Origin: Marsupella aquatica
Lineage: Eukaryota; Plantae; Marchantiophyta
Direction of reading: 5' to 3'
Length of the DNA: 64,000 bases
Assembly (NCBI GenBank): GCA_973895155.1
Contig: OZ316897.1
Coordinates: 22,977,455 to 23,041,454, forward strand
Shown: positions 1 to 64,000 of the stretch, piece by piece
Layout: every line of letters starts with the position of its first letter
How positions within the stretch are numbered: position 1 is the first letter of the stretch
Translations under genes and position numbers: made by a program
The notes under the pieces: generated by a model
What the model was told of the DNA's origin: nothing
What the model saw: only the letters and a program-made list of their open reading frames with translations
Database searches by the model: none

Positions 1-600
1 TTATGTGGGAGTTGAGAGACAAATGTGGCTTGATTGGTCCTGAACCTTTGGCGGTTATGACTGGATTGACTAACAATGCTCATGGTGGGATATTGGTTGG
101 TATTTTGCAGAGATTCTCAATTTGCTGAGGTTGTTGATAATATTAGAGATGTTGCTAACAAGATTACATCTGATAGAAAGCTATTTGTGGGGAGACTTCA
201 CAAGCTTTGTGTGATGTGAGTGTAATTATGGATTGCCTGCCTAAATAGGTGTTAATAAACATTGTTTGAGAGTGAACCAAAAATGCACAATTCTTTCTTT
301 TGTTGGTCTGAATTTTGGAGATTTGAGGGCTAGTTTCAATTGGATTCGTACCCTCACATTTTCTTCAGGTTCTACCGGTAAGAAAAGTATCTTTGCACTA
401 GTCATGCTTCCCTAAAATATACCTTTATTCTCACTATGAGGCCCCTCAAGAAAGAACTCATTTTTGTTGGCTGCATGCTTTGGGCAGGGATATTAATTAG
501 GGTGTGGGAAGATGTGAGGGTTTAGATGAAATAAATGTTCTAGATGAGGATAATACCCTTCTATAGATGTTTGCACCTCTCAGGAAATTATGAATCAAAG

Positions 601-674
601 ATGTTACAACTTAAGGCATTCTGATACACACATCCGCAAGGGTCGGTGTATTGTTTGACCCCAATTGTGACCTT
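601..674. repeat. ~75-bp structured dispersed repeat, copy A
   Basis: Near-identical to 4433-4505 (aaggcattctgRtacacacatccgMaagggtcggtgtaYtgtttgaccc), with self-complementary ends gttacaa...ttgtgac. Confidence 0.8.
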
Positions 675-16570: not shown

Positions 16571-17598
16571 TAGAAGTGAAGTATCCAATCCAGACACACT
16601 TCTTAGCTTAGCCAAAGAGAGGTAAGACTCCCGTGCGATTGACAAAGTGCGTTCTCCGTTTGGGCTGTTTCAATTGCAACGTTCGTTTGCGGGTGAACTT
16701 CTTTCGCTCTGCCCCAGGGGAGCTGGTCCGAAGTGTATGGACCCAAAGGGATTCGAGGTCGTTTCAGTGTCACTCGGGCTATGGAGGACTCTCCCTTGTC
16801 CCTGCGGCGATTGATTCTTGGGAAGGCATCCGGCCAAAGGCCATGAAGAAGGTGTCATAGGCGCGTCCTCACACTACCAGAAAGGCACCACCTTCCTGAA
16901 TCCTGACGTTCTCAGGGGGCCCATCTTGCCGCAGTGCAACCTAAATCTGTGGAGACTGATGGTAAAGAGTCGGAGAGTATCAAAACTATCAAACGAGTGG
17001 GGACCCACCTCCTTCGCTCGCTCGTTCCGTCCATCCCGGAGGCGGAGCAATCCTCCAGCCAGCCTATCAAGTCCGCAGGAGTCGGGAGTTCGGGACGCAA
17101 CCCAACGAGAAAAAGCTCCCGGCCGGGAGATTTGCCGGGAGGGGGCAAGTAATTGGTAATTGGTAGGACTCGTGCGTGTGCCAGTGCGCCTCGTCCCCCA
17201 CACGGCGAGAAAAGCGCCCATTCCAACCTCTCGTGCAACAACTATGGTCCCCATCGCAACTGGCGACGCAGGGAGTCGTAGTAGTTTGCAGGGCAACGGG
17301 CGAAAGGGGCAAAAGGCCGCAGGGCGTTTTGAGGAGCTAGCTGAAGAGCGTAAATAGTCAACTCCATTTTGCCGTTCCATCCTTCCATCGTTCAGTTCAA
17401 TTTGGAGGCCTGCGAGTTCAGGCACGTTAGGATCGACGAGGTGTGTGTGGCGCTGTTGTAGTGTGGCTGCATCGATGCAGTCAGCTCGGAGGATGCAGGA
17501 GTGATCATGCTTTAGCGGCGAAGGAGGCTAGTCCGTGGGCTTCTCGTGCTTTTGGGAGGCGCAGTAGAGAAGCGCCATTTCTCTGAAGTGGTGAAGCT

Positions 17599-20499
17599 AT
17601 GGCGGACACAAGCAAGGAGGCGGGGGCGACCAAGCCGGGCCCGATGAATTTCGACGACTTGCAGAATGAGTCCGTGGACCTGGAGCACATCCCCGTGGAG
17701 GAGGTCTTTACGCAGCTCCGATGCACGAGGGAAGGGCTGTCCATGGAAGAAGGGGAGGCTCGGTTGCAGGTATTCGGCCCCAACAAGCTCCAGGAATTTT
17801 CGGAGAGTAAAATTCTGAAGTTTCTGGGGTTCATGTGGAATCCGTTGTCATGGGTCATGGAGGCTGCCGCAATCATGGCTATTGCGCTTGCTAATGGTCA
17901 GGGAGCGCCGCCCGATTGGCAAGATTTCATCGGTATCCTTACGTTGCTTCTTATCAATTCGACTATCAGTTTTATTGAGGAGAACAACGCAGGTAATGCT
18001 GCTGCTGCTTTGATGGCCCGGCTGGCGCCGAAGACGAAGGTGTTGCGAGATGGGAAGTGGGGAGAGCAGGACGCTTCCATTCTTGTCCCGGGAGACATCA
18101 TTAGCATCAAGTTGGGAGACATTGTCCCTGCTGATGCTCGTCTGCTCGAAGGTGATCCCTTAAAAATTGACCAGTCCTCTCTGACTGGAGAGTCGCTTCC
18201 TGTCACCAAGAAACCAGGCGATGAGGTTTTCTCAGGATCGACCTGCAAGCAAGGAGAAATTGAAGCCGTGGTCATTGCCACAGGGGTGCACACCTTCTTC
18301 GGCAAGGCTGCCTATCTCGTGGATAGTACCAAGTCCGTGGGGCATTTCCAAAAAGTCCTCTCAGCTATCGGAAGTTTCTGTATTTGCACAATTGCATTGG
18401 GCATTATTATTGAGCTTATCGTCATGTACCCCATCCAAAAACGACGGTATCGTGCAGGAATTAACAATCTTTTGGTTTTGCTTATCGGTGGTATCCCTAT
18501 TGCTATGCCCACTGTGCTCTCTGTTACCATGGCTATTGGCTCTCACAAGCTGTCCCAACAGGGTGCAATCACGAAGCGAATGACTGCTATCGAGGAGATG
18601 GCAGGTATGGATGTGCTTTGCAGTGACAAGACGGGTACTTTGACCCTGAACAAATTGTCTGTGGACAAGAATCTCATAGAAGTCTTCACGAAAGGTGTGG
18701 ATAGAGATTTCATCGTGCTGTCTGCAGCTAGAGCAGCGAGGACGGAGAATCAGGACGCCATTGACACTGCCATCATAGGCATGTTGGGAGATCCTAAAGA
18801 AGCTCGTGCAGGCATCCAGGAAGTTCACTTCCTGCCTTTCAATCCCGTCGACAAGCGCACGGCCATTACTTTCATCGATGAAGATGGGATCTGGCACAGG
18901 GCTAGCAAGGGGGCTCCGGAGGAGATCCTTCACTTGGCCCACAACGAGGCCGAAATTGCTGCCAGGGTGCACAGCGTGATTGATAAATTTGCTGAGCGTG
19001 GCCTTCGATCGCTCGCAGTCGCCAGGCAGCAAGTGCCAGAGAAAAGCAAGGAAAGTGACGGTGGTCCATGGGAGTTTCTCGGATTGCTACCCCTCTTCGA
19101 CCCCCCGCGACACGACAGTGCTGAAACCATTCGTGAGGCTCTCAAGTTGGGAGTCAATGTGAAGATGATTACAGGTGATCAGCTCGCCATTGCCAAAGAA
19201 ACGGGCCGAAGGCTTGGCATGGGTTCCAACATGTATCCGTCTGCAAGCTTGCTTGGAAAGAGCAAGGACGAATCTATCGAAGGACTCGACGTTGATGAGC
19301 TGATATACAAGGCCGACGGGTTTGCTGGCGTATTTCCGGAGCACAAGTACGAAATTGTGAAGCGACTCCAAGGCCAGAACCACATCTGTGGAATGACGGG
19401 AGATGGCGTGAATGATGCACCGGCGTTGAAGAAAGCAGATATAGGCATCGCTGTCTCCGATGCAACTGATGCAGCTCGTGGTGCTTCAGATATCGTGCTG
19501 ACGGAGCCTGGTCTCAGCGTCATCATCCACGCTGTGCTCACTAGTCGAGCCATCTTCCAGAGGATGAAGAACTACACCATCTACGCGGTGTCTATCACGG
19601 TCCGTATCGTCCTGGGCTTCCTCCTCCTGGCTCTGATTTGGAAGTTTGACTTCTCTCCATTTATGGTTCTGGTCATTGCCATCCTGAACGACGGTACGAT
19701 CATGACCATCTCCAAAGACAGAGTTGTTCCGTCTCCTCTCCCTGACAGTTGGAAGCTGAAAGAGATTTTTGCCACTGGAGTAGTGATTGGCACTTACTTG
19801 GCCTTGATGACGGTCCTTTTCTTCTGGGCAGCCGATAAGACTAACTTCTTCTCTAAGAGCTTTGGCGTGAGGTCAATCAGAGGTAGCAAGAGCCAACTCA
19901 CTGCCGCTGTGTATCTGCAAGTAAGTATCATCAGCCAAGCTTTGATCTTCGTGACTCGCTCGCGAGGCTTCTCTTACTTGGAACGCCCGGGCATGCTCCT
20001 GCTGCTTGCCTTCTGCCTCGCCCAACTTGTGGCAACCTTCCTGGCTGTCTATGCTGTTTGGGGATTTGCTACCATCAGAGGAGTGGGCTGGGGATGGGCT
20101 GGAGTCATCTGGCTGTACAGCATCGTCACATACATTCCTCTAGATTTCATTAAGTTTGCCATCTTCTACGTTTTGAGCGGAAGGGGTTGGGAGTTGCTGC
20201 TCGAGAACAAGACTGCGTTCACTTCGGAGAAGAACTTCGGAAAGGAGAACCGGGAGGCTCAGTGGGCACATGCACAGCGAACTCTTCACGGTCTGCACGA
20301 AGGTGGTGGAGAAGCACAAGGCTCGTCGCCATCCTTCCCACCAGCGAACGCGGATGTTCCTGCGATCGCGCAGTTGGCTCAGAGGCGTGCAGAAATTGCA
20401 AAGTTGAGGGAGCTTCACACTCTCAAGGGACATGTAGAATCTGTCGTAAAGATGAAAGGTTTGAATATGGAGCACATCCAGCAGTCATACACGGTATAG
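17599..20499 (+). CDS. AHA: Plasma-membrane H+-ATPase (P3A), 966 aa, single exon, penultimate-Thr type
   Basis: Motifs [19 protein letters not shown] and [20 protein letters not shown]; C-terminal 14-3-3 site QQSYTV. Confidence 0.97.
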
Positions 20500-26783: not shown

Positions 26784-27590
26784 ATGTTGGGGGTCACAAC
26801 TATGACTACATCATTCTCCTGCACTCCCTTCAAAGTTTCCTTTATGTACTTCCAGTTTTCATAAGGTGCTTCTTTTATCCATAATCGATTAGGGCTACCA
26901 GAGCAGATGTTGGGGGTCACAACTATGACTACATCATTCTCCTGCACTCCCTTCAAAGTTTCCTTTATGTACTTCCAGTTTTCATATGGTGCTCCTTTTA
27001 TCCATAATCGATCAGGGCTACCAAAGCAGATTTTCACCGCGTTCTCCATGTAGGCAATGAAGCTCACGCGAACTACCATGTTGGGGGTCACAACTATGAC
27101 TACATCATTCTCCTGCACTCCCTTCAAAGTTTCCTTTATGTACTTCCAGTTTTCATATGGTGCTCCTTTTATCCATAATCGATCAGGGCTACCAAAGCAG
27201 ATTTTCACCGCGTTCTCCATGTAGGCAATGAAGCTCACGCGAACTACCATGTTGGGGGTCACAACTATGACTACATCATTCTCCTGCACTCCCTTCAAAG
27301 TTTCCTTTATGTACTTCCAGTTTTCATATGGTGCTCCTTTTATCCATAATCGATCAGGGCTACCAAAGCAGATTTTCACCGCGTTCTCCATGTAGGCAAT
27401 GAAGCTCACGCGAACTACCATGTTGGGGGTCACAACTATGACTACATCATTCTCCTGCACTCCCTTCAAAGTTTCCTTTATGTACTTCCAGTTTTCATAT
27501 GGTGCTCCTTTTATCCATAATCGATCAGGGCTACCAAAGCAGATTTTCACCGCGTTCTCCATGTAGGCAATGAAGCTCACGCGAACTACC
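26784..27590. repeat. Tandem array: four essentially identical 171-bp units plus one 123-bp truncated unit
   Basis: Units start at 26784 (short), 26907, 27078, 27249 and 27420. The array creates the repetitive 293-aa minus-strand ORF. Confidence 0.95.
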
Positions 27591-46296: not shown

Positions 46297-47232
46297 TCAT
46301 TCTTCATTCGTCGTTCGTTCTTCAATCGAACTGATGGACTCGGCCGATTCGCAGTACCTCCGTATAGAATCGCGGTTGTAAGAGAATGCCGGCAGAGCTG
46401 AGCTCTGTAAATCCTTGTGCTTCAAAATTCCCTTTGGCAGGCACTCGAGAACAAAGTCGAACAAAGTCGAACAGTTCTCAGATTACACCCGGGTATGACT
46501 ACCATGCAAGGAAACAGGAAAAAAAATGCTCGTAACAGGATTTTATTTGCTGTAAGAAGTTCTTTTGGCAAAATGGGCCCTTTTTCTCTCATATCAAGGT
46601 TCAGATGTAAACCCGCTAGTAATAACTTGCCTCGCTAGCCAAAAATGGCCGAGCAGTTTGTTTGGATTTATCAGAGAAGGTCCTGTAAGCTAAGCACAAT
46701 TCAGGCAAACATTACTAACGGTCTGGAGTTCTACTTTTCATTTCCAACTAGGGGATCGACATGGGCAATCATACACATGAGACCACCCCACTACAAACAT
46801 GATATTCCACCTTATGAGGGGAAAATAACCTCGCCATTCATAGTCTGATACAATCACACCTCATTCAATAATGTATATGATTCAGGCATCCTATTTCGTA
46901 TGCACAAGGAAAAACAACAAGAGTGTTTCTCTGAATAACCACCATTTGTTCAAATAATACACCATAAATGAACTCTTTTTAAAATGAAGGCTAGCAACCT
47001 CGCTAGCAAAAAACAACCAACATATGGTATTTTTACATATGCTTGAAAAGAACATTCCTTTATTAATGGAAATATCTATACTCACAACTTAGAAACAAAA
47101 TATTCTACTCCTTATGGTAATGATATCATGGTCAAAATATCTCACCCTCCGAGAAATCTAAATTAATTAAAACAAAATCCAACTTACTTCTCACTTAAAA
47201 ACAAAACTCTTTCCAAAGAGGACCTGTCCATC

Positions 47233-50200
47233 TCAAACCTCAATTGCCCGTTGAGTAAGATCGGAAATTTCAGCTATGGTTAAAATAGGCTGCTTAACAA
47301 TGTCATCACTATCCAAGTTCAAACGGGAACATTCTTAAAAATCCAAAGAATATGTTTGCAAGACATATAAGGTTTTCCATGCGAATGCCGCTTGAAGAAA
47401 TCTGGACAGGAACAACAAGGAAAAGAGCACAACTGAATCCAATATTTACTCGACTTACTTGGATTGTTTTCATGAGTAGCAATCAAAAACTGTGATCCCC
47501 ATCCGTTTCCTTGGACGACTTTCTCAGAAGCTACGACCCTCATTTGTTCGTCATTTGCAGCCTGAATCCTTTTCAAGAGTTCTCCTGTGAAGTTGAAACA
47601 TTGTCGAGTACCTTTTCCATTCCGTGTCTTCATTCGTCTATTTGGGTAGGTTACATCAACCTTCTCTGGAAAAGAGTTCACGTCAATGCGAAGTTCCACC
47701 CGGTTTGGAGGAGAAACAATGCCATCTGGTTGGCAGTCCATGTAGTAGAGACCCTCAATTTGAAAACCCATCTGAATCAAGAAGTTGATTTCAGGAGGTG
47801 TTAACCCTGTCCCTCGATGAACTTTCAGAGATTCAGGAACTAAAGGAAGTTGGGAAATCGACTTGCGACCCCTTGTTTTGTGACAGATATTGTTTGGACA
47901 GAAGTACAGAAGTTGAGTGTGCGGCGAAGTGATCCTCAAACCGTGGATGGCAACCCCAACAACACCGCATGATCTTTTGTGATACCCGACTTCCTTGATG
48001 AAGTTCCTACACTCGTCTCTTCCAGAAATGGTTCGATCCATAGACCCATTGCAGACTGGACCATTTCCGTGTCCACACCTCCGGAAGTGCCAAGTCCCAA
48101 ATGGTATGTCTACTTCATGTACAGCTGGTATTTGCCGAGGTGGAATATGAATCGGTTCCCCTGTACCAAGAGGAGATACAACTTCTTCATGCAACGGCCT
48201 TGGAATTTCTTGAGTGTCATCAATCGACATATCAGTGCCATTTTCTTCATTATCAGAAAGAAGGATCACAACGGATGGGTCCGAAACAACTTCTGGACCT
48301 CTAGACAACATTGAGTGATGGAGTATTCCGGAAGTTTCCAAAACATCTTGCTTATCGTCCACCACTTTCACACTTCCAAAATCCGAATATAGATTTCTAG
48401 GATGTACCCCCCTGGTCACTGCCTCGGTTTGCATTACCCTATCATGTCGATGAGAGTCTTCAGCACCAACTCTTGCGGAAGCAGGACCTTTTCGCTTTCC
48501 AGACTTTGTGCAAAGATCCCCGTGAAGTGGTTGGGTACGATGGAAATCGTACTTTGGAGACGACTCAAGCAAAAGATTTGATGCTTTCTCGAAAGCATCA
48601 AGAGATCCAAGAGTATCCGCATTCCGATATGCAAGTTCAAAAATGGTTGGTCCATGTCCCCTGTGACATCCCTCAATGTACGCAGCAAAGGCAGCAATCT
48701 GTCCACCAGCTCGATTTTGATCCAATTCACACGCTTCCAACAATCCAATCTTCCTCTTCATTTGACAGGCTCTCATTGACGCATGTACATATTCCGCTCC
48801 AGTACAATTTGGCATCAATGCTGACTCCTTTGTTGTTTGAGTCTGAAATCCAACACAAAAACAACATAAGATTGTGTATCATGATGAAAGGCCCCAAACA
48901 TAAACTCCCACTTAACCAGAATGCTAGCGACCTCGCTAGCCAACTCAAGTGGTTTACTTCACTTACCAGTCTGAAGTAGTTTCCCCATTGTCGCCAACGA
49001 ACAACCCACCAGGCAATCCAGCCTTGCAAAGCCCTCAATTTACCATGATGACAATTCCCAGATTTCCACCACTCTTGAATCTCGTCTGCCACTCTGTATG
49101 CCTCAACATATGTTGGAGCGTTCCGAAATTTCTCCCACATCTTGTAATGCTCTGAATGTTTCCCGTCACGAATTCCCTCCAATGTATGCCGTCTCAGAGA
49201 CTGAGACAAATGGAATGCATCACTATGTTCTCTTTCTGGGAACCGGACACCATCAAAGAAAACATTTCTCACAACAATCCATCCAGCTTCAGCATTGTCA
49301 GCCATAAAACCTGCTATCTCTACCTCACTAATACCATTCTCAGCAGCAACCTCCAACATTAAACGCCATGCAGTTTCCAAAGAGTCAGCATCCTCTGCTT
49401 TCAATTCACAAGTGAATATTGTACAAAGGGCACGGTAAGTGTGATCATAAACATGAGCACTGAAAGTGAGCCAACCTGTTGTTATCCTATGCATCACGTC
49501 AAAACTCACTTATGCCCCCTCTAAAGTTCCTCCTCTTTGCATGCGACGGAGAATGTCAACACCTGAACCTGGACCCTTGGTACTCATCTTGAACACATGA
49601 GCCCGGATGGACTTCCCAGCCTGTCCCGGGAACATGAACCTCTGAAGGAATGGAAATCTCACATGCATTTGCATCTCACGAAGTGAATCCAACTCACCTT
49701 TCTTGGGATTTCCTATCTTAACACTTCGAAAAATTGCATGGAACTTTGCCGGCGATGACACAACTTTCATTGAATTCCACAATTCAACCTCCTCTTCTTT
49801 TGAAAGATCTTGGCATGACTCGGGATGCAAAAGCGATATCAATGTACCTATCAAAATGTTCTTCACCCTGGAGGGTGTTGCTAGTGGATGAGCTATCTGA
49901 ACGCCTTGAATAACTTCTTCTGCTTTCTTCTTGGCAACTCGACACTTCCCTGTTCGAACTGGATGATCGTGAAATCCCATATGCACAGCAAGTCGAGACA
50001 TATGCTTTGATATATGTGAATCCAAGGCCGGTTTAGCGTACACATAAAACATCTTAGCAGGACAGGGCCTTACACAAAAAGGTCTTTCGTCACAAAACCC
50101 ACAAACCAAACCTCCTTCGGGAACAAGGGAACCCGGCTGGAAGACATCTGTAAGAAGAGACCTTCCTGGGAATGCAGCTTCATTCTTGGCCCCAGTCTCT

Positions 50201-51039
50201 TTGAATTTTGAACAATTCAAATTTTGACATTCAATAACACCTGTGCAGCGGACCTTGAAAACAGACCAGTGGTCGCGTGGCTTCAGATTAGCAGATGTGG
50301 TGACCAATCTTGTCCATGGGTATCCATCATTATCACGGTCCATGTCTAGAAGCCCTTGCCCTCGACCAAATCTAGATTCCACCGGAGGAAGCTCATAGAC
50401 CTTGTCTCCATTGTAACTTGTGGGAAGTCGGTCAACTTGGAAATCAACCCACGCAACATCTCTTCTGAATCTAGCAAGCTCACTGGCCCCAGTAATCTTC
50501 AAGAATGCTTCAAATGCACCAATTCTGTAGACCTTGGTCAATGTATCAGAACCCACAGCCTTAGGTTCAACCACGTCCTCCTTCAAGTTGTCCACCACAA
50601 TTGTTGACCCCATAACCGACACCTCATCATTAATTCCTATAGACTCTAGAGGGTCCAGGTCCACAAAAACCCGTTCATGAATCATCTTAGAATTCCGTCC
50701 AAGGAAAGGGATCCCTGGAACATCTGCAAATGACTTGGGATCTTCATCCTTTCCGGAAACAAGCTCAACAATATCTCCAGACTCGACCTCCCAAACTCTT
50801 CCTCCATCAAGACTTCTTGGAATGAATTCATCCTTTCGAGCACCATGAACAGAAACAAGAAAAAATAGCTTTGAGATGTAGTCACCATTCGTGATACCAA
50901 ATCTCGTCAAGAGGAATGACTCAGTCACCGGGGTGATCTTCCTCATGGAAGACACCTCCAAGTTAACAACATCACCATTGCTCCTTCGCCAGAATATGAC
51001 CACCAAAGCCATCGAATGGAGATGAAGAAACATTACCAA
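47233..51039 (-). pseudogene. MULE transposase: GCM/WRKY-like Zn domain + DDE + SWIM finger
   Basis: CTGVIECQNLNC...CGFC..C...C.A...HMGFHDHPV; SFD...GFMADNA...DAFH...WW..RW..WG; intron 48966-48843; NCTGAEYVH; SWIM CSCPDF...CKHILW. Stop at 49510-49512 and frameshift near 47325. Confidence 0.85.
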
Positions 51040-52198
51040 AGGTAGTGGTATAGAAGATATGTAAGAAAGCCCAAAACTACATCTAACGGGATTAAATGTG
51101 AATGTTGAGGGAATGTTGAATAAACGACAAAATGTCCAACGGATACATTAAATCAAGGAGATAGAATATAGCTAGCGATGTCGCTAGCTAAAACCTCTCA
51201 ATTTTTATTAACCAGTAGACATGTCATATTCTATATAGAGAGATAATTTAGAGACTATTTAGAGACCATTTAGGGACATGAAGGGTACAATTTAAGGGAA
51301 TATTCTGTCAAGCCCTTCATTTTGGGGAAAAGACAAAGGAAATATAGAAGATTAGTTTTAAAGACTACTTTTTGTCAAACTTCACAAACCAAAACCTTCA
51401 ACTCAGAAAGAATGTATTGCCAGCGATCTCGCCTGCAAAAATCGAGACGGTCCTAGAGGATCCATTGAGTCAATGACTAATACATAAAGTTGTCAAATAA
51501 ACCCTAGTCATCAGGTCAGCGATGTCGCTAGCAAAATCACCAATATTCATCTTATCTCTTTGATGTAGTAAAGGTCAGTATCCCTAATATTTTGGTGTCT
51601 TATTCAATACCCTAGTTAAGCTAGCGATCTCGCTACCCATAATGGATGACCAGGAAACAACGAGTTAACAGATATTTTTCCATCTCACATCTTCAATGTT
51701 TATACTTTCTTTAGACAAATGTTGGTTTGGGGAAAGGCATTTAGAGTCCCTCAAAATTAAACAAGAATAAGAAACTCTCAAGATACCCTAAAACATTCTT
51801 GTGTGTTAATATATTACCGTTGAAAATCTGATGTCCATTTGGATAGCGATCTCGCTGGCTAAAATCTCAAACTTTAATGACCAGGAAATATATGGGTATG
51901 GTTTAGTCTTAAGTCTTTCCCAACGGAAACCCAACGGTAAAATAGAAGGTTGGTCAACGTTAAAATTGATAGTTTCCCGTTAACAACCTCTAAAGGGAAC
52001 GTTGCATGGGGTTAATGTTGAATATTATGGTTATTCTAGTTGCTCAGCGTATTCATGACGTTCCAACTTAAACCGATGATGTTCAAAAGAGACTTGCATT
52101 TTTTATTGCCATCTGTGACGGACGTTGTATTATTCCCTGTCAATGTCAGATATCCAGTTCACTGTATGTGGATTACTTAGGATTCTCCCTCTAATCCA

Positions 52199-52311
52199 AC
52201 TTTGGATTCCCAGCTCGGTCCTTCGCTAATCTCGATTGTCCTCCTCTGTTTTACTTTGGATACTCTCTCGAATGAGACTTTGGATACTCCTTCTAATCTG
52301 ACTTTGGATAC
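52199..52311 (+). repeat. actttggat(ac) x4 just upstream of the ParB-MTase start codon
   Basis: Starts at 52199, 52253, 52277 and 52301 (24-bp spacing for the last three). Confidence 0.75.
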
Positions 52312-52383
52312 CAATTAGAAGCCACCGTACCCGCTGCAACGCTTTGTTCGTGTGTTACTCCCTTCCATTTTCTTTATCAGCCG

Positions 52384-55300
52384 ATGGCAAATTTTGCATC
52401 ACCAGAGTCTATCTCTTCTCAAGCTTCACAGTCTGCAGCTTCTCAGCGTCGAGAGACAAGGTCTTCGACTACCAACAAGGCACTAGCTTCGGGTTTGAAG
52501 ACACCTCGTCGAAGGAAACTTGTTGATCCGATGGAGATTTTGCCACCACCGATGGAGTCTTATAAGTCGGAACCATTCTTCGTGGTGATCAACCGTCACC
52601 TCTACCACTTTGGGCCAAATGAATTTGGGTATCCCCTTGTTCCCCCTCGAATTCCACTATGTAGGATGCGAAACATGCAGCTCGTCAGGTCGCTGCAGAC
52701 TGATTCCAATGCAATCGAAACCCTCAAGAATGAGTTTCGAGCTCAGGGTTACATTGAGGACGCGCCCAGATTTTACGTTCAGATGACGAACGAGAATGGT
52801 GAGGTTCAGTTCATCAACGACACCATTTGAATGTGTTGGGATCCGATATGGGCGTTGCAGAACGAAGATTTTGAGAGAGAGTGTGATTCTCATCCAGACT
52901 TTGCTGTATTGAAGGACAAAATGTTTTATGTTTTTGACGGTAATCATCGTCTATACTCGTGGAATCTGCTGGCCATCGAGAATCCACATGATATCAAATA
53001 TCATCCTCGTGTTGTCACCAAGATTTTCAAAGGGGAGAAAGACACGTTTGTGCAGATTGAATCTGCAATGCATGCCCTGAATCGGTGAGCATCGGATCTG
53101 TTCTTATTGATTCAATGTTGTCTATCACTTCACATTTCGGGTTTTCTTATCTCTGATTTGTACTCGAAACATCTTTGATACTTTTGTTCATTGGCAGGCT
53201 CACTCAATGCCACGTTGAGAATTCATGGGTCCTTGAAGCAGATCGTGTCCAGAAGATACTGAACACGGACTTGTCGGTCTACAAGGATTTGATTGATGCA
53301 GACAATTTCAAGTTGTTCCAACAAAAGATGCAAAATGTGAAGAAACCCTCTTGGTATTCAAAAAATATGACCCTCGATGCTTGTATTTACATTCTTTCCG
53401 CTGCAAATATAGCTTCCCAGACTGCGGATTTGTAGAAGAAGTTTTCTCTCAAGGAGGATCTTGGCGAACCTTTGTCAAAAGCTGCGAAGGACACTGCTCT
53501 ATGAGAAATGATGAAGGAGCAACTATCTGATTGGAATGTTAAAGTTCCAAAAATTGCTCCTCTTCTCAATCCCGAATTCAGGGATTTCTTTCAGAAATGT
53601 GTGGAGATGCATAACTACTGTGAGAAAGAACGGAAGGAAGCACAAAGGATTGATGATAAAGGGAGAGGCAATGTCTCATGTGGTCTTGATCGAGCGAGGC
53701 TTTTCACCGGGGTAACATCTCTCAGCCCACTACTTCGTTGCAATCTACTTGAAGCGCAGTGCAAGCCCGAGCTACGAAAGCAATATTTTCATCCTGGGCA
53801 ATTCTCAGATAGTGAGACTAAACTCTGGCTGCACAGGTGGGCTACGTGGGAACAAGTAGAGTCGATTGCTAGATCTCTTTTGTCCGAAGCTGTTTCAGAA
53901 ATGATTCTAAGTGTCCCTAAATCTCGAGTTCTTTCAGCCTCAGAGAAGAACAAGGCGTCACTTGTTCTTGATATTAGTGATGAGTTTGAGGACTTTTTGC
54001 AGCGAGTTAAATCCAGGTTTTTCAAGAGCATTAGGGCCCCAAAAGTAGGGGAAAAGATAGATATTGTCGCATTTTGGAGAAGGGCAAAAAGATATGTATA
54101 CCGATTTTTTGTTGACCGGGAGGTGGCCAATAGAGCATTCTGGTGGTGTTACCCCGCGTGTTTCTCCCAGTGGGCCGAATACGTGACTGACGATTTAGGA
54201 AATCAAAACTGTGGTGACTACTCAATGTACCCTTGTGAAGACGTTGAGCCACTCCGGAAGATGAGTGAATGGGAGGTTTTACATTGTCCATGGTACTTAG
54301 ATTCAGAGAATTGGTCACTGACATTTGATGGGACAAAGAAGCTTGCTTTGCAGAAGATAAATCGTGGGTTAGTCCCAGAGTTTTATATATCTGAATCAAA
54401 AATGCCCAGCCTCGAAGCAGTGCAGGCCGGGTGTGAGGCTATGGAGCAGGCTTGCCTTGGTGTTGCACCAATTGTTGATAGAAGCCGTTCCTGAAAATTG
54501 AAGAAGGACGTTGTGAAGGAGGTGTCAAAAGAGACCTCTCAGGTTTCCGGCAGGAGAAGTAAGTGTGCTCATCATCCTAACTCTCGATCGGCTTCTAATG
54601 TTTAGTCCTTTCTTTGCAAATTCTTGTTTTCTGAGGTTTTTGGTTATCTTTTTTTTCCAGAAAAGAGAAGATCGACTGGTTCAGAGAGTGTCCAGACCGT
54701 GCAGAATCGTGGGCGACAGGATCCCATTGAACCTGAATCTCCGGATTTTGATATTGTGACAAAACCGATTGGTGATAAGCTTAAGAAGAAGAGAAAGGTT
54801 TAAGTGCTCTCAGATTCAGAAGATGAGGAAGGGTCGATCAGTGAGGGTGTGATGAGGATATGTGGACTTCAACTGGATGGGAATCGACATTTCTTTGCCA
54901 GGAGTAATTTGCATTTCACAACAGACTCAATTGCTTTGAAGAAAGTTTGACCTTCGTGGATGGGGGAGGGGGATCGCTGGCTGAGTGAGATTTTGAGTTC
55001 TTCAGAACATCCGAACCCCCTAAGAATCAATGGCAAGCCTTACACCGGTACCAGTGCCCATCTTGGGTTCATTGCTCTTCCTACAGGACTAAGGCCTCGT
55101 GTTACTGATGTGAAGGTGCCAAAATGGAATGTTTGGATGGAGAAACTTCCTTATTACTTCTTCGGAGTCATGAGGCCGATGTTGTCCGATGATGGATATG
55201 TGGTTGTTCTCCATAGTGGAGAATTTAACCACATGAAGCAGATTTTTGCTGCCATTGAGCAGAAGAATAAATTCAAACATCTTTGCCAGTACCACGTTTT

Positions 55301-56421
55301 GTTGAGTAGCCCAATGTGGATGCCAGACATCGATGTTGAGGTGAGATGTCAAGATTTTTGGTTTAAATTATAGGTCTTTTTTGCCAGTGAGGTTGCTAGC
55401 CTTCACAGCCTCAGTATTTGACATATTTTTTGCTTTTCCAGGTTTGCAATCTCAGTCTGGATGTGTTTTGTCAAACTGAATTCGATGGGAAGATCCCCAA
55501 GGACCCGAAGTACATCCCCATGGCAACATCTGAGGATGCATCTCATAAGAAGTTACTCAGTCTTTGTTACCCGAAAATCAATGTCAGGACTGAGTTAGCT
55601 TTTGCAGGGTCTTGTCGATTATCTGTTGGATTCATGCAGGCAGTGATGGAGCTTTTGACAAAGCCAAGAGACATTGTGCTAGATTGGAATGTTGGAGATG
55701 GAAGTTCATTCCGAGCGGGGGAACTCTCCGGGAGGTTTGTAGTTGGGGTTGAGGATAGGGAATTTCTCCATGATGCTGCACAGGAGTCGTTGAAGTTGGT
55801 TTTGGATCGTCATAAGAAAATTGAAGACATCACTATTGGGATGGGTACTGAGTCATTGGAGGACGGGGATTCAGATGACGAGTTTACTCTTGCTGGATCG
55901 AGTGGTGGAAGAACGAAAGTTCCTGCTCCGGATGGGAAAGATGACCACGATGAATTTGACCTGGAGTAATGTACTTATCCTGTCTCATACCAAATCCAAC
56001 TGTGTTTAGAAAGTAAAGTTCAGTTTTTTCCACCTTGAATTAATCGGCTGCTGATTTTGCTTTTTATAGTGATCGACGTGTAGATTGGTTCTCGGAGGAG
56101 AGATTTTGGCTCCGAAAGGAAATTGAGGGCGCTTTTCTCTTCTCGCCTGAGAAATCGTTCACTCTACCTTGCTATGCGGAGAAGTCTGCAATTGAAGCAG
56201 ATGACACTTTTGTTATGACTTGGGAAGGAAAAGGTCGGAGGTCAGATCGTGGCGCTCGGAGGAATTTGTACAGCCTTCCTTTCATTGATGTTGAGGCGGG
56301 TCATGTGAAGAGATATGTGGACGAGTCGGCTGAGTCAACTGATAGGGAGTTTAGCAGTGAGGAAATCAATAGTAGTAGTATGAATGATTTGGAATCAGGT
56401 GAAAGTCATTCCACAAATTAG
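52384..56421 (+). pseudogene. MULE cargo gene: ParB/Srx-like domain + beta-class amino (N4C/N6A) DNA methyltransferase-like domain, ~1200 codons, 5 exons
   Basis: Exons 52384-53084, 53198-54558, 54661-55340, 55442-55965 and 56070-56421 splice in frame. Motifs: FYVFDGNHRL; KKKRKV; LGFIALPTG..P.WN...LSDDGYVVV; FMQAVMELLTKPRDIVLDWNVGDGSSFRAGELSGRFVVGVE. Six in-frame stops. Confidence 0.75.
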
Positions 56422-58037
56422 TGTGAAGTTTTATTCTGCTTGTGTGTCCCCTGAATGGGAAGCAGCAGAATAAGCTTGATCTCTTTAGCCATTCTGGAGA
56501 AATTACTCTCAGTTTCAATAAAGTAATCGAGGAAGCCAATTTTGATGAGTGGGAAATGTCTGTAACTTGAGTATAGTCTTTATTGGTTTTCTTGTTTTGA
56601 TCAGTTTTGTGTATGATGGAAGGCTAGCGCCCTCGCTTACAACCCATGTGCATTATGAAAGTTTTGACAAATGCTTAGTTTGGTTGTGTGAAATCCTTTC
56701 GAGGCACTAAATATGCCATTCAAAAAATGACATATCCCTCGCTAGCAAAGCTCATGTCGCTAGCAATTTCTCCTGTTTCCTTGCATGGTACAAACCCCCA
56801 TTACACCCAAACCATCCCCTTACACCAGATCGTCAGTCGATCGTCAGTCGAAGGGTCTACAGCCGCTAGAGCACTAGAAAAGGCAGACACTGTCTCTTTA
56901 TAAACGCCAATTGGGGCCTAGGCTTGTACTGTAGATTGGGGCCTAGGCTTCTAGAGTGAATACATTTTTGGAGTTTTGGGACCTAGTCAGGCCAATTGGG
57001 GCCTACTGTAGTCTTCTAGAGTGAAGACACTTTTGGGGTTTTGGGGCATAGTCTTCTAGAGTGAAATCTCTAAAGTGAAGATTCGAGACACCAACTTCAT
57101 GGCTCATCATGTGTATGAGAAAACTCATCAATGTATGAATGATAATCATGCATGTTTTTTGTGATGATTTTTATTTACATTAAAAAAAATCTTATCATGT
57201 GAATAAGAAAGCTCATGAATATATGTTAAATGATGATATTTGTATTACAAAATGAACTCTAATGCCCCACCATAACATATGTACATAGAAAGAGGGATGT
57301 GCATAGAAAAGAGTATGATATGTTCTGTATGATTATTAAAATGATGACATGCATGATGGATTTTTATCATTTCATTAACAATCAAAAAATGTGAATAAAA
57401 ATTATATTTTGGTGACATATTTATTGTACTCCCTGCTATTCAGGTTCAAAGAACAGGTAGTGAGGGCTAGTAGATAACAATGTCAAGGACCAAAAAGTGT
57501 CAAACTTGGAAACACTATCCCACGGGTCAAGAGACCCAATAACCAATTTTTTCCAACATTGCCTGACTTGCTCATGAATGTTATTTTCATAGGTAGTTAT
57601 TTCATTTTAAATCTTGCTTTAGGGTAGTCCATGCTTTGTAGTGCCTGACCTTTTGAATATACACAAACACCCTTAAAAGATTTCCTTCCCTTTTATTCTT
57701 TTATATGAATTCATATGTAAAGTACCTTCACCTCTGTCCCAATGCCTTGGCGTTTCTTCATTGAGAGGGGCTATGTCTTCTACTAGCTTCAAACCCTTGA
57801 CCTTCACTCCCCAGCCTACTCCTTCAACCATTGGGCTGAGGACTAATGCTGACATTCAATGGTTATTAAGTGTATTTAGTAACTTCATTCAAATTTCTGT
57901 TATTTTCCATTTTCATTGTTTTTCTTGATATATAGCTGGCCCATTCTATGACATGGCTATTTTGTTTTATTTGAGCTATTAAGAAATAGTATTTATTGTT
58001 GCATGATTGTTAAAGTGACAAAACAAAATCTCTATAT

Positions 58038-61000
58038 TGTTAGACTCTACCTGGTGACCGGACGACCGGACCAGCCAGTCACCGGACCGGCACCACTACA
58101 TGTACCAAACACCATAGACTATACATCATTCATTCTATTCTCACACGTTATCAGCACGAAGCCTCAGCCAGCGGAGCGAGATAGAAAGGAGAAGACCAGG
58201 GAAGATTGAATTTTTTTTTGAATGGGGGATCGAGAGGACGACTTTAACATCTAAGGAGCACAAAGACATTGGATCCAAGATCAAAGAGTCGAGGGCAGAA
58301 AAACAAATTTCGAGAGAAAGGTCGAGCACTATAAAGGCATCGAGAATTGAAGGGAACAAAAATGAAGATGGATGTGAGCACTAGAAAATGAAGATTGCAG
58401 ATTGCACGAAGCAACAGATTCGTGAAGGGAGCCAAAGCTTTATCATCTAAGACTCGGCCTCGAAAGATCGCAGCACAAAATGAGAAGATAGAGTAAGCCA
58501 TTGATGCAGAAGAGAGCACTTCAGGGAATTTCCAAGTAGACACTATCGTAAGGGCAGAAGGACCAGGCCGAGATCGAGAAATAAAGAGAAAACAAGAAGA
58601 CAGCCCTGGAGGAAGCATCGACCTACGCCCTTTCAATTGCTCTTTGATAAGGAACATCGAATAGAAAATAAGACCGTCCTCACTTTGAAAATTGAAGATC
58701 GGGAAGACTGGAAAACATTGAACGTGCCAGGCAGGCAGGCAAGCGTTTTGATACGAACGAAAGACATCGGACCTAGGTGGAGAGGCAAAGAAAAACAAAA
58801 GGGAAGCATCGATCAGGAGCAGAAGGGCAGCATCGATCGAGGACCTACACAAGATGCTGTAAAGCGAAATTGACAGAAGACCAATAAGAGGCATAAGGCA
58901 ACAACGATAGAAGGCAATGAAGGGAGAAGCCCAAGAGTAGAGGTCGCGAGCGGACACAAGCAAAAAAGCACAAGAACAACCCAAACACATCGAGAGAACG
59001 TCGAAGAAAACTCAAACCACTAAGTGCACGCTCCATAACCGCACACAACCGCAAAACCCTCTTTAACTGCAAAATCCGTCAAATAGATTTCAGTTACAAA
59101 GGAAAAGTTGCACTTAACCATAACTGCAAAACCTAAGCGCACATCCGCATAACTGCACACCGTAACCAAGAAAATTTTACTTAAAACCTAAATCCTTAGT
59201 GCAAACCCTAAAATTGAATTCCGGATTTGCATGCTCTCTCCTCCCAGCACCACCTTGCATGCCGCAGAAATGTGCTTTGTCGTTTCTTACTATACTTACT
59301 AGTATATAAGCCTCAACTACCATTAAAATGAATCAAGCCATCAACCCAATGACCAACCTAGAGAAATTAACATTTCCAGCCCTAGACATCGATGGTAGCA
59401 ACTACCTGGAATGGTCAATGAATCTCAGAGAGAACCTAACCTCGCTAACCCTACTCCTAGCCATAGGGATGGCTCAACCTATACTAGCTGGCGAACCCCA
59501 ACCAGACCCGTTAACTAAAGCCAATGAATCGAAGGCCCTAGTATTCCTGAGACGCCATATCCATAGATTCCTACAAAGACAATACATGCACCTCTCAACC
59601 CCTCGTGAACTATGGACAGCGCTCCAAACCCGATTCGACCACCAAAAATTTGTTGAACTACCTAAAGCCAGGCAAGACTGGCTAAACCTGTGAGTCCAAG
59701 ACTTTACCTCTATTTCAGCCTACAATAGCGAACTCTTTAGAATAACATCAACCCTCGCACTATGTGGCGAGCCGGTCACAGACAAGGATCTGCTAGAGAA
59801 GACCTTGTCGACATTTCATTCATCGAATGTGTGGCTATCAACACAGTATCGAAACATGAAGTTCGGGCAATACTCCGAGCTCATAGCCCACCTCCTAGTC
59901 ACCGAAAGAAACCAAGAACTTCTTTTCGTAAACTCTAGAAAACAACCTGCGGGCACAATGCCCTCAGGACAACAGAATGAAACCCATAACATAGAAAATG
60001 ATGAACCCTCCACATCGAGGCAAGACATTAAATGCACTAAGAATAGCAACCGGAGAAACACCCACAACAGGGGAAGTTTCTATAACCAACGTCCACAATA
60101 TAACTCCCAACGGACCTTTAGAGGACGTGGAGGACGAGAAGGACGTGGAGGACGTGGAGGACGTGGTGGACGAGAAGGACGTGGAGGACGTGGAGGACGA
60201 GGAGGACGTGGTGGACATGGCGGACGCGGAGGACGCAGCGGTGGTAGAACATATAACAACAACCGTAGAAATGATTGGTCACAATCCCGACAACAACGGG
60301 AACGACCGAAATGCCATGAATGTGGCATGACAAACCACCTAGCGAGAAACTGTAGAATCCCGCAACACCTTAGAGATCTATACCAACGGTCCATCCAGGA
60401 TGGACAAACCTCTAGGACACCACCCCGTGAAACCCACGGGGCGTTCATGGAGTCTAGTGACCCATTCCAAGACTTTTCAGACCTACCTGTCCAACCCGAG
60501 GCACACTTAGTGGCAAGTAGCTCCACTACACCAGATTTAAATAGCCCAAGCACATGTATTATCGACAGTGCGACCACGCATACTATCCTCGGGGATAGGC
60601 ACCTTTTCCACAAGATTACACCCTCACGTAGATCCTTGACCACTATAAATGGCCCTAGCCAAATAGAAGAAGGCTTCGGCCCAGCTTCCATTAGACTACC
60701 GCAGGGTACAGCGATTCACATAGAATCTGTCATTTTCGCCCCGAACGCAACCCGTAATCTCCTCAGTTTTAGAGATATACGAGCAAATGGACTACATGTC
60801 CAGACGGGCGATACAAGAGACCAGGAAGTGATACACTTGGTTGAAAATACCCCTACGGGGAAAATCATTAAAGAAACACTTTTCTCGTACCCCTACGGGT
60901 TTTATGTAACTCATATTGAATGCCTGCATAACAATGCCAACACAAGCGAATTGCATGCGCTTTGGCATGCACGCCTCGGCCACCCCGGCCAATCAATGCT

Positions 61001-64000
61001 AACCAAAATCATTAAGAATTCAAGAGGCATTCCAATCAATACACGCCACATTCCAGCAAGCACCCCATGCACTGCATGCTCACGCGGCAAACTAATAACA
61101 AGGCCCACGGCATCAAAATTGCCAACTAAAATACCCCAATTCTTGGAAATCATCCATGCAGATGTTTGCAGAACAATTAACCCACCGAGCGGACCATTCC
61201 GCTACTTTATGGTATTAATCGACGCATCAACTAAATGGTCAAATGTGACACTGCTTTCAACGAGGAACATGGTTATGCCTCGCATTTTGGCGCAAATCTT
61301 GCACATGAAAGCACAATTCCCAGATCACCCCATTAAGACACTAAGGGTGGACAATGCAGGGGAATTCACATCCAAAACATTTGATAACTTGTGTACATCA
61401 CTTGGCATCGACGTACAATATCTTGTACCTCACGTGCATTTTCAGAACGGATTAGCTGAAGCAGTCATTAAACGCCTTCAGTTAATTGCATGCCCATTAT
61501 TAATGCAGTCAAAACTCCCCGTCTCAGCATGGGGACATGCCATATTACAGGCTAATGCATTAATCCAATACCGCCCATCGGCTTTTAATACCTATAGCCC
61601 ATACCAAATTGCTAATGGTATCAAACCTGACCTATCACATCTTCGTTCATTTGGATGTCAAGTAATGGTCCCCATTACTCTACCCAAACGAACCAAGATG
61701 GGACCCCAACGACAGTTGGGGATATACATCGGATTCGACTCTCCGTCCATAATTCGATATATGGAGCCAACAACTGGCGACGTTTTTAAATCCAGATTTC
61801 TAGATTGCCATTTTGATGAACACATTTACCCACCATTAATAACCCCTGAACACCCACAACCACTTTTGGAGTGGGAAAGACACTCACCATTTTGGCAAGA
61901 CCTTAGAACCAATCAAGGGGAGAAAGAAGTTCAACGAATTTTACAACTCCACAAGATTGTGGAAGAACTTCCCGATACTTTCGTTGATACATCACAAGTT
62001 AGCTGCTCACATATTCTAGCTGCGAGAGCACCTGCTCGCATTGAATTATCAAGTGAGCCAGCAAGTACATCCCAGCCTCGTGCCAAACGAGGTAGACCTT
62101 TGGGATCAAAAGATAAACAACCACGAAGGCGTGGTTCATCTATACCACCTTCACCTGATGTCGATCATAACGAATCTACATCCCATATCTCTATCCACTA
62201 CGCACACACAGGTGCGATGTGGGATAGAAATACTACTTCAATAGATGATGCTTTTGCATTAATGGTGGCAACACATATCACTGACGATACACCCGAACTA
62301 ATATCTATCTTAGAATGCCAAAAGAGACCAGATTGGCCTGAATGGCAAAAAGCTATAAATGGAGAATTAGATTCCCTACTTAGCAGACACACTTTTGGCC
62401 CAGTCGAGCCAACACCGCAAAATGTACACCTAATTGGCTACAAGTGGACATTTGTCCGCAAAAGAAATGATAAAGGCCAAGTTGTATGCTATAAAGCACG
62501 TCTGGTAGGGAAAGGATTTACCCAACAACCGGGAATTCATTACGATGAAACCTATTCACCGGTTATGGATAGCACAACATTCCGATACCTTATCGGATTT
62601 GCCATTTTCCATAAACTACAAATGCGACAACTGGATGTTGCGACCGCATATCTATATGGAACTTTAGACACTTGTCTGTACATGCGATCACCTCCTGAGT
62701 TGGAGCAACGTCGCCGAGCTTTAGCTCAAGGCGCTAAATCGCATATCCCATATTTACATAAGATTATAAAACAATTATCTCAAGTTACACCTCATGTGTC
62801 ATCTACACATGTAACTCATAATAACGACACCGCTGTGTCAACCGTACGGAATACTCGCTGTGGACTAGCTATCCGCGTGTTGAAGGCATTATATGGCCTG
62901 AAACAAAGTGGCAGAGTATGGTATCAAAGATTTACTAATGAAATGATTGCCATGGGTTTTTCCCATGATGCCATTACACCATGTTTATTTATTAAACATG
63001 TGGATGATGAATATGTCATCGTTTCTATTTATGTTGATGACTTAAATATATTTGGGACACCCCAACTTACAGAAGACACTATTACCAGTCTTAAATCCAC
63101 ATTTGAGATGAAAGACCTTGGACATACAAACTTTTGCTTAGGCTTACAACTAGAGATCCTACCCACTGGCATGATGCTCCATCAGACAACACAAATTGAA
63201 AAAATCCTAAAACAGTTCAATATGAACCTAGCACACCCATTGACGTCACCAATGGTTGTACGTTCATTAGAAAACAATACTGATGTTTTTCGCAAGCGCA
63301 AAGAACATGAACCACTATTAGGACCAGAAACTCCATATCTTTCTGCGATAGGAACATTAATGTATCTAGCAAATCAGACACAACCAGACATTGCATTTAC
63401 AATTAACTTACTAGCTAGACATAGTGCAACTCCCACAGCCAAACACTAGAACAGAGTTAAGCACTATTTAGGTATCTGCGTGGCACCACCGATACAGGGT
63501 TATTTTACCCATTCGGTGCAAACCACGAACTCATAGGATACGCGGATGCCGGATATCTTTCTGACACTGACACCGCAAAATCGTACCCCCTTTTCTTGGA
63601 AAAGCGTGAAACAGACCCTAACAGCAACGTCATCGAATCACTTAGAAATCTTAGCTCTACATGAGGCTAGTCGTGAAGCCGTTTGGTTACGATCCTTTAT
63701 AAATCACATCAACACCAAATGCGGCCTACCACCACTAACGAAGCCTACTAACATTTTTGAGGATAATGTAGCATGTATACAGTAGATCACGAAAGGATTC
63801 ATCAAAGGCGATCGCGTGAAGCATATAGCTCCAAAGTTTTTCTACACCCACGAGTTACATGGAAAAGAGATCAACATTTTGCAGATTTCAAGTGCAGACA
63901 ACTGTGCGGATCTCTTCACCAAATCACTATTGCCATCAATTCATCACCGACACTGCCAAGCGATTAGACTACGGAGCGTGCGACGCATGATGACCGTGGA
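58038..64000 (+). mobile_element. Ty1/Copia LTR retrotransposon (Bianca-like), 3' end outside the window
   Basis: Probable short 5' LTR 58038-58145 (TG..CA), then PBS CGTTATCAGCACG at 58146, then gag-pol. Confidence 0.88.
59328..63990 (+). pseudogene. Copia gag-pol (gag, CCHC, protease, integrase, RT, RNase H), disrupted
   Basis: KLTFPALDIDGSNYLEW; CHECGMTNHLARNC; IIDSATTH; WHARLGHPG; RVDNAGEF; YKARLV; YGLKQSGR; YVDDL; IFEDN. Stops at 59691 and 63447, plus frameshifts and stops in RNase H. Confidence 0.93.

Follow-up and report, generated by a model that had tools for sequence, protein, structure and literature searches.

A decayed Mutator-like element of a liverwort carries a putative ParB-like and methyltransferase-like gene and an 18-bp palindrome confined to its non-coding parts

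This locus raises the question of why a plant transposon should carry, opposite its transposase gene, a second gene (gene B) that seems to join a ParB-like domain to an amino-methyltransferase, and whether the product could mark or recognize the element's own DNA. In the 64-kb stretch of DNA that we analysed (the window), the segment 46491..56799 is a Mutator-like element (MULE) of 10.3 kb (Table 1). The 9-mer ATTACACCC occurs three times in the window, two of these occurrences flanking the element ends as a 9-bp target-site duplication, and the ends carry inverted-repeat arms of 24 nt (46500-46523 and 56767-56790, 96% match) that reach about 33 bp in total with the terminal GGG. Both ends are common to contigs with other flanks: the alignment of a contig from run X1 starts exactly at 46491 and is preceded by eight unrelated letters, and that of a contig from run X6 stops exactly at 56799 and is followed by 54 unrelated letters. 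The transposase gene and the spliced gene B lie head-to-head, 1,353 bp apart. End repeats and gene layout thus confirmed the target-site duplication, short terminal inverted repeats and two divergent genes of the original prediction, which had called the element intact-ended. Only the ends are intact: one premature stop in the transposase gene and six in gene B mark the copy as dead.

Table 1. Features of the element, in window coordinates
Feature	Position	Strand	Remarks
Left target-site duplication, 9 bp	46482..46490	+	ATTACACCC; 9-mer repeat search
Left terminal inverted repeat, about 33 bp	46491..46523	+
Left subterminal palindrome	46990..47007	.	half-site 46632-46639
Transposase exon 2	47319..48842	-	candidate catalytic Glu codon 706; C-terminal SWIM-type Cys/His motif
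Transposase intron, 124 nt	48843..48966	-	perfect palindrome at 48923-48940
Transposase exon 1	48967..51033	-	start codon assumed; Cys/His-rich N-terminal region
Divergent promoter region common to both genes	51034..52386	.	holds five palindromes
Promoter-region palindromes, five	51171, 51419, 51515, 51620, 51842	.
Gene B exon 1	52387..53084	+	putative ParB/Srx-like domain; DGNHR 52936-52950; premature stop 52828
Gene B exon 2	53198..54558	+	middle region; premature stops 53433, 53502, 54492
Gene B exon 3	54661..55340	+	KKKRKV 54783-54800; premature stops 54801, 54948; first methyltransferase half, ALPT 55074-55085
Gene B intron 3	55341..55441	+	palindrome at 55383-55400
Gene B exon 4	55442..55969	+	SAM-binding half; motif I 55670-55705; acidic motif II 55751
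Possible gene B exon 5	56070..56421	+	required for 1,204-aa model only
Right subterminal palindrome	56623-56640	.	half-sites 56739, 56757; region 56623..56764
Right terminal inverted repeat, about 33 bp	56767..56799	+
Right target-site duplication, 9 bp	56800..56808	+	ATTACACCC

There is moderate support for a MULE-type DDE core in the putative transposase. An Atlas search gave MULE as first match (0.92) and placed 23 of 30 matches in the MULE set, with 156 shared features, fewer than the 170 typical of true members, and a Pfam search of three pieces gave no matches. Exon 1 contains candidate residues Asp 512 and Asp 579 and a DxxH motif, which together with the Glu and SWIM-type residues of exon 2 we take, from MULE motifs, to be the pattern of the family; their catalytic roles are those of candidates. 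The premature stop falls at codon 508 (49510-49512) in exon 1, and a single-sequence model of the N-terminal part (pLDDT 31.5) was set aside.

Gene B has four GT-AG introns (113, 102, 101 and 104 nt) and, once spliced, reads without a frameshift through exactly 1,205 codons, or 1,089 if the last exon is omitted, giving a protein of 1,204 or 1,088 aa; exon 4 either terminates at the stop at 55967-55969 or splices onward at 55965. The predicted length of about 1,200 codons depends on the last exon, which lacks support, with matches in none of 52 proteins compared (E<=1e-3). The motifs DGNHR, KKKRKV and DIVLDWNVGDGS (at 55670) are where they had been placed in gene B. None of the 15 joints listed (of 27) matched the predicted introns, a result that says nothing for or against expression. 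Exon 2, the middle part of the gene, belongs to no known family.

The C-terminal part of gene B is predicted to have the fold of a beta-class amino-methyltransferase. The model concerned is of the liverwort relative P0010 rather than gene B's own protein (pLDDT 61); its first Foldseek matches were beta-class amino-methyltransferases (E 4e-6 to CcrM), a structural comparison with CcrM gave Z 11.2 over 193 residues (rmsd 4.4), and its top 11 structural matches were all to beta-class enzymes (Z 8.8-11.2). The circularly permuted Rossmann fold of this model and the order of motifs in gene B, with motif IV before motif I, agree with the N4/N6 class originally proposed. The PF01555 match to gene B itself (E 2.7e-4, 21.4 bits) lies below the 26.7 cut-off, and its methylase part matched bacterial adenine enzymes with E-values of 1e-6 to 6e-5, versus 0.19 for N4CMT. 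Both SAM-binding motifs are present in the family: motif I as the variant D-W-x-x-G-x-G, its Asp kept in 28 of 29 aligned rows, and the acidic residue of motif II, likewise kept in 28 of 29, the alignment having taken in 28 of 50 matches.

The catalytic motif is another matter. Beta-class motif IV is defined as [DNSH]PP[YFW] (PMC4738411), in which the polar residue forms a hydrogen bond with the amino group of the target and the aromatic one stacks (PMC10406627); in gene B it was predicted at the right position, but the sequence there reads ALPT. This register comes from sequence alignment, and an ungapped match of P0044 (72-140), a relative from Riccia, to window positions 55053-55259 agrees with it, the profile comparisons having aligned only the SAM-binding half; a reading as LPTG was set aside because alignments with relatives place ALPT there. 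Across the six sequences that cover the motif (gene B and five relatives) it reads ALPT, ALPT, FLPN, FLPN, CLPN and DPPT, the full consensus occurring in none and the polar residue being absent from five. As the sole listed sibling change in the ALPT codons is synonymous, ALPT is not a product of decay in this copy. With ALPT in place of DPPY and no family member out of six keeping the catalytic motif, writing of 4mC or 6mA by the gene B protein is doubtful, which weakens the proposal that the element marks its own DNA. Catalysis could still occur: an aromatic residue in a conserved PxWN, 11-13 residues past ALPT, could stand in for that of motif IV, and P0044 retains DPP and aligns along the full length of methylase profiles from Pfam (E 3e-5) and PHROG (E 8e-9).

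At the N-terminus, a putative ParB/Srx-like domain is suggested by the GxxR motif, which is the nucleotide-binding motif of ParB and Srx proteins and follows a hydrophobic strand both in gene B (FYVFDGNHRL) and in its relative L001 (FSMFDGNHRL). Two of the three NCBIfam matches to L001 were DGQHR models (E 0.082 and 0.13, far below their cut-offs), and the N-terminal region of gene B had no ParB match in Pfam, PHROGs, the PDB or annotated phages.

In other runs many divergent contigs align over the two genes, and gene B is covered as deeply as the transposase gene in four of four; in run X1 summed contig depth, which is not usable as copy number, was 342-3,125 inside the element versus 75 for a flank contig. 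No aligned contig spanned both genes in a sibling copy. Synonymous changes made up 19 of 37 listed sibling differences in gene B versus 22-28% expected (P 1e-4 to 2e-3; the listing is of the best-supported 40 of 48 rows and may favour synonymous changes), and identity to L001, which has intron 1 in the same place, was 0.57-0.78 at the first two codon positions and 0.23-0.39 at the third. These substitution patterns show the imprint of purifying selection on gene B. Intact copies were not seen among sibling contigs or in L001, as no more than 14-71% of sibling depth carries a sense base in place of the stop at 54948, and the L001 reading frame is itself interrupted by a stop. None of 680, 175 and 6,403 candidates was a significant full-length relative, which is weak evidence; when metagenomes were scanned with the methylase alignment, none of 103 pattern matches was confirmed, and a scan with the gene B N-terminal region gave two loci, L001 and L002, the latter dropped as a chance-like match of only 11 residues. 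No gene B match was found in 15 viral contigs. In annotated liverwort genomes the relatives are listed as ordinary unnamed genes.

The element also has a sequence signature, an 18-bp palindrome that matches nine times in the window versus 0.06 expected. All nine sites lie inside the element and in non-coding DNA, in an element that is 70% coding (P about 2e-5); two are within introns, one in each gene, and at the site in gene B intron 3 sibling copies are one base nearer the consensus (row 55388). The palindrome was missed in the original prediction and is, in our opinion, the best clue to mechanism. It is a candidate binding site for the gene B protein. Confinement of an element-specific motif to non-coding parts, seen here for nine of nine sites, is the pattern of the VANC proteins, accessory products of Arabidopsis MULEs, of which VANC21 binds a short motif found in introns, between genes and near the ends of its element (PMC5735166). 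Unlike the sites here, VANC motifs are 8-9 bp, non-palindromic and often in tandem, and the cited sections, in which demethylation is demonstrated for VANC, describe no methyltransferase or ParB domain.

We favour, tentatively and at somewhat short of an even chance, the reading that the element, a dead member of a repeated family of two-gene Mutator-like transposons, has in gene B a likely self-recognition helper. Its putative ParB-like domain would attach to the palindromes of the element, the predicted methylase fold, lacking its catalytic motif, would probably serve to bind SAM or DNA and not to write 4mC or 6mA, and the protein would keep the shared promoter and the ends active as an anti-silencing factor; the ParB identity, loss of catalysis, the binding of the palindromes and this outcome are all deduced steps.

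The palindromes may instead be bound by the transposase, with gene B helping in some other way (end bridging, reading modified DNA or as an RNA-binding factor), which we consider rather unlikely. Full or half-sites near both ends (46632, 46990, 56623, 56739, 56757) and the Cys/His-rich N-terminal region of the transposase would fit this, as would two precedents: the AtMu1 transposase alone activates its cognate copies in a sequence-specific manner (10.64898/2026.08.24.746577), and DIRS1 retrotransposons keep N6A-methylase domains that are likely inactive and may have RNA or polymerase as binding partners (PMC4738411). However, seven of the nine full sites are internal, in the promoter region and two introns, the kind of places bound by VANC (PMC5735166), and the two-fold symmetry of the site suits a dimer such as ParB, which binds inverted repeats (10.1101/2025.02.11.637652).

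That the gene B protein is an active enzyme of non-canonical type, writing 4mC or 6mA on its own element as originally proposed, strikes us as unlikely. The beta-class fold and motif order, the SAM-binding residues (28 of 29 rows), the conserved Trp after the motif and the whole-profile matches of the DPP-bearing P0044 speak for it, and a writing role was proposed for algal elements (PMC12477816; 10.1101/2025.02.11.637652), but the residue that bonds the amino group and the stacking aromatic (PMC10406627) are both replaced in gene B, none of six sequences has the full motif, and none of the cited passages shows activity for such a transposon protein. It is very improbable that gene B is mere cargo of Pack-MULE type, taken whole or in part from the host and with no role in the element, even though it has plant-type introns and its liverwort relatives are annotated as ordinary genes. 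It is not a one-off captured fragment in few copies and without a transposase: it is covered as deeply as the transposase gene in all four runs, has a synonymous excess among copies and a palindrome within its own intron, and lies beside a full-length transposase gene.

The favoured reading, a self-recognition helper, has relatives in print. The accessory-gene architecture is known from algal transposons; the palindrome is new here. The accessory gene of Ectocarpus Sola1-1_Ec32 encodes 1,104 aa with ParB-like and N4/N6 methyltransferase domains, opposite the transposase, and its product was suggested to bind the element that encodes it and to modify that DNA (PMC12477816). By description, gene B resembles it in size (about 1,100 aa), opposite strand and methylase fold; it differs in being in a land plant and a Mutator-like element rather than a brown alga and the Sola-1 superfamily, and the passage on Sola1-1_Ec32 is silent on catalytic motif and binding sites. 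Green algal transposons with such cassettes are cited there (PubMed 21507349, via PMC12477816). In red algal Plavaka elements a PF01555 methylase and a ParB-like domain are cargo of the genes PAG2 and PAG3, homologs of which occur in Chondrus Mutator elements (10.1101/2025.02.11.637652). The ParB call for PAG3 is also weak (HHpred E 0.29) and inverted repeats adjoin that gene too, but as tandem arrays rather than dispersed single palindromes, and the domains are spread over two genes (methylase with SET; ParB with 2OG oxygenase) instead of one fused gene. Marchantia DN4MT1 and bdelloid N4CMT are likewise eukaryotic proteins with a beta-class fold that came from prokaryotes (Z 9.5 for N4CMT), but they are active host enzymes that keep SPPY (10.1101/2021.02.12.428880, PMC10406627), whereas gene B has ALPT and is transposon cargo. 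DIRS1 shares with it a transposon-borne amino-methyltransferase fold retained despite replaced catalytic residues; its domain, however, is of the PCIF1-derived group, in a retrotransposon polyprotein, and the cited description includes no ParB-like domain (PMC4738411). The original prediction knew of no description of this arrangement in plant MULEs. We found no published report of such a cassette in land plants, though preprint supplements may describe liverwort relatives, and the two algal reports are precedents.

The element thus extends a kind of transposon cargo, ParB-like and methylase domains, from algae to a land plant, and it provides a defined 18-bp candidate binding site restricted to non-coding parts. 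Its motif IV, altered but conserved in the altered form, would lead one to expect that the protein binds and does not methylate in the canonical way. More widely, we speculate, as a somewhat improbable reading, that this is a land-plant Mutator self-recognition system, in which a prokaryote-type ParB-methylase fusion loads through its ParB-like domain on parS-like palindromes spread over promoter, introns and ends, and its methylase fold, with a catalytic motif rewired under selection, protects DNA, reads it or puts a non-standard mark on it, so that the element escapes silencing. If true, this would be a second anti-silencing chemistry, unrelated to VANC, and would link the elements of plants with the ParB-methylase cassettes of algae. 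If the gene B protein does target the palindrome it would offer a new sequence-specific chromatin tool, and if it writes 4mC or 6mA it would be an unusual enzyme.

The transposon picked out in the original prediction (46491-56799) is real, and its proposed ends were borne out by a target-site duplication (ATTACACCC on both flanks), by the inverted repeat formed by its terminal 33 bp and, independently, by contigs of public sequencing runs: the alignment of a run X1 contig begins exactly at 46491, with different letters preceding, and that of a run X6 contig stops exactly at 56799, followed by unrelated sequence. In runs X2 and X4 position 56797 is joined back to 56764, probably as both inverted ends in one contig or as a variant end. 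A Pfam search with gene A, the transposase (1,196 aa, one premature stop), gave no match; the Atlas entries nearest to its core were MULE transposases (0.92; 23 of 30 matches; 156 shared features, a modest number), its sequence shows what we take to be the D, D, DxxH, E pattern as well as a SWIM-type motif, and Mutator-like is a fair label for the element.

Features in and around the element and elsewhere in the window
Feature	Position	Strand	Remarks
Gene A	51033-48967 + 48842-47319	minus	start assumed
Gene B, exon 5	56070-56421		
Target-site duplication	46482-46490; 56800-56808		
Tandem repeats just outside the duplication	46449-46473; 56828-56851		10-bp x2.5; 11-bp x2.2
466-aa open frame	4611-6011	plus	tail-to-tail with Helitron
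Helitron Rep/helicase	7413-11190	minus	three open frames with stops between; Helitron_like_N E 6e-23, PIF1 E 4.5e-23
P-type ATPase	17587-20496	plus	970 codons without introns; E1-E2_ATPase (Pfam) E 1e-44
Four tandem units	26907-27590	minus (open frame kept)	171 bp, 100% identical
Copia-type gag-pol	59310-63446	plus	one stop between two open frames; RVT_2 E 1e-48

Elsewhere in the window, the 466-aa frame ends in an HxD...H pattern (MHEDED ... VVHGT) which presumably resembles that of 2OG-Fe oxygenases of the TET/JBP kind; Pfam (E<=10) gave no match to this frame and PDB none of any meaning, and it is possibly a second transposon-borne DNA-modifying cargo. The ATPase reads like a plasma-membrane proton pump (subtype by eye), its single-exon copy being a possible retrocopy, and the 171-bp units are either a recent duplication or an assembly artefact.

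Gene B, divergent to gene A, comprises 1,205 codons through four GT-AG introns (101-113 nt), with no frameshifts and six premature stops. The position of intron 1 is common to gene B and its metagenome relative L001, and intron 3 coincides with the junction in two annotated Calypogeia proteins; exon 5 was supported by none of 52 proteins, and without it the product is 1,088 aa. Because one protein relative (P0042) carries both the beginning of the N-terminal region and, in the same frame, the methylase end (45% over 82 aa) and another (P0037) combines a piece of the middle region with the methylase (E 3e-5), these comparisons support N-terminal, middle and methylase parts forming one gene. The DGNHR motif is conserved in L001, two of whose three NCBIfam matches are to DGQHR models (E 0.082 and 0.13, weak and well short of cut-offs), presumably of the ParB/Srx group, a match that leans on the same motif that prompted the ParB idea. 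This half matched nothing in Pfam, PHROGs, PDB or annotated phages, and ParB is a plausible but putative identity for it.

The predicted methyltransferase fold holds: exon 4 matches PF01555 at E 2.7e-4, under its cut-off, its Atlas matches are clusters of N6_N4_Mtase (0.94), and the predicted model of relative P0010 (mean pLDDT 61) found CcrM, M.BceJIV, M.MboIIA, M.PvuII, M.RsrI and N4CMT as its first structural matches (Z 11.2 to 9.5). A cluster-representative search with the methylase half gave 50 matches, 31 of them <1e-10; among 30 looked up, four had a named organism, in each case a liverwort (Calypogeia fissa for three, Riccia sorocarpa for the fourth), which hints at a liverwort-like host. 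In an alignment taking in 28 of the 50, the motif I Asp and the motif II acidic residue were each kept in 28 of 29 rows. Unlike these SAM-binding residues, the catalytic motif is not kept: with the Riccia protein matching free of gaps, which fixes the register, the six members covering it have ALPT (window), ALPT, FLPN, FLPN, CLPN and DPPT, the comparison enzymes having DPPF in phage and DPPY in bacterial ones. The defining motif is [DNSH]PP[YFW], whose aromatic residue stacks on the target base (PMC4738411), and the amino group is held by the first residue and the proline carbonyl (PMC10406627). The ALPT codons have one sibling change among the rows listed, and it is synonymous. Since a PxWN is conserved 11-13 residues downstream, the active site may be an altered one. 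The Riccia sorocarpa protein (P0044, KAL3696265.1), the sole one of the six with DPP in motif IV, matches methylase profiles across the whole domain; of the members it is the strongest candidate for activity, and it makes a natural control.

Contigs of four runs aligned to the element (781, 1,431, 2,446 and 145; >99% to <90% alike) cover 30, 30, 30 and 28 of its 30 bins, genes A and B alike; none spans both genes, and we therefore infer their linkage in sibling copies. At 54740-55140, the 40 of 48 sibling differences listed, a set biased to well-supported rows, comprise 19 synonymous, 16 missense, 2 nonsense and 3 at the window's own stops, a synonymous excess (19/37 vs 22-28% expected; P 1e-4 to 2e-3). 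In place of the 54801 stop, all four runs have a sense codon at full depth; the stop at 54948 is sense at only 14-71% of depth, so many siblings are broken too. Gene B coding differences among the best 40 of 1,377 rows number 13, mostly private to the window copy, and three are synonymous, the decay expectation. In a comparison with L001 over 322 codons, codon positions 1-2 show identities of 0.57-0.78 and position 3 of 0.23-0.39; two of the window's gene B stops are Lys codons in L001, which carries one stop of its own. Together, the synonymous excess and codon-position identities indicate long purifying selection on gene B; the window copy is dead.

A palindrome, GCTAGCGA-NN-TCGCTAGC, occurs nine times in the window at <=3 mismatches (0.06 expected; none of 100 shuffles reached nine), and its exact half-site ten times (0.55 expected); the pattern was derived from the repeats themselves, so these figures show the repeat to be real, but do not amount to a confirmed prediction. 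All nine lie inside the element, which makes up 16% of the window, and all are non-coding, although the element is 70% coding (P about 2e-5): five are in the shared promoter region, one per gene in an intron and the remainder subterminal. The one in gene B intron 3 is one base closer to consensus in essentially all depth of all four runs (row 55388). VANC21 sites are reported to be distributed alike, in introns, intergenic and terminal regions (PMC5735166).

We tentatively favour gene B as a helper whose putative ParB-like domain would bind the palindromes, with the catalytically altered methylase fold serving as a binding module, and which would keep the element active. It is rather unlikely that the transposase binds the palindromes instead, a reading for which AtMu1 is a precedent (10.64898/2026.08.24.746577). 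The original prediction of a 4mC/6mA writer keeps its methylase fold, but the substituted catalytic motif makes the writer role doubtful, and an active, non-canonical writer seems a little less probable still; that gene B is a passenger is highly improbable.

In Ectocarpus, the transposon Sola1-1_Ec32 has a 1,104-aa gene with ParB-like and N4/N6 methyltransferase domains on the strand opposite its transposase, and the product is proposed to bind and modify its own element (PMC12477816). According to a Bostrychia preprint (10.1101/2025.02.11.637652), Plavaka elements carry one gene with PF01555 and another that is ParB-like and adjoined by inverted-repeat arrays, and Chondrus Mutator elements carry homologs of the Plavaka genes. 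A literature search, with most subscription papers outside reach, found no land-plant case of such a transposon gene, and the available part of PMC12344493 added nothing on transposon-borne 4mC enzymes; Marchantia DN4MT1, with TSPPY, is a different thing from gene B (10.1101/2021.02.12.428880). The element is a variant of a kind already known, whose function there is putative, and its non-coding palindromes make a direct experiment possible.
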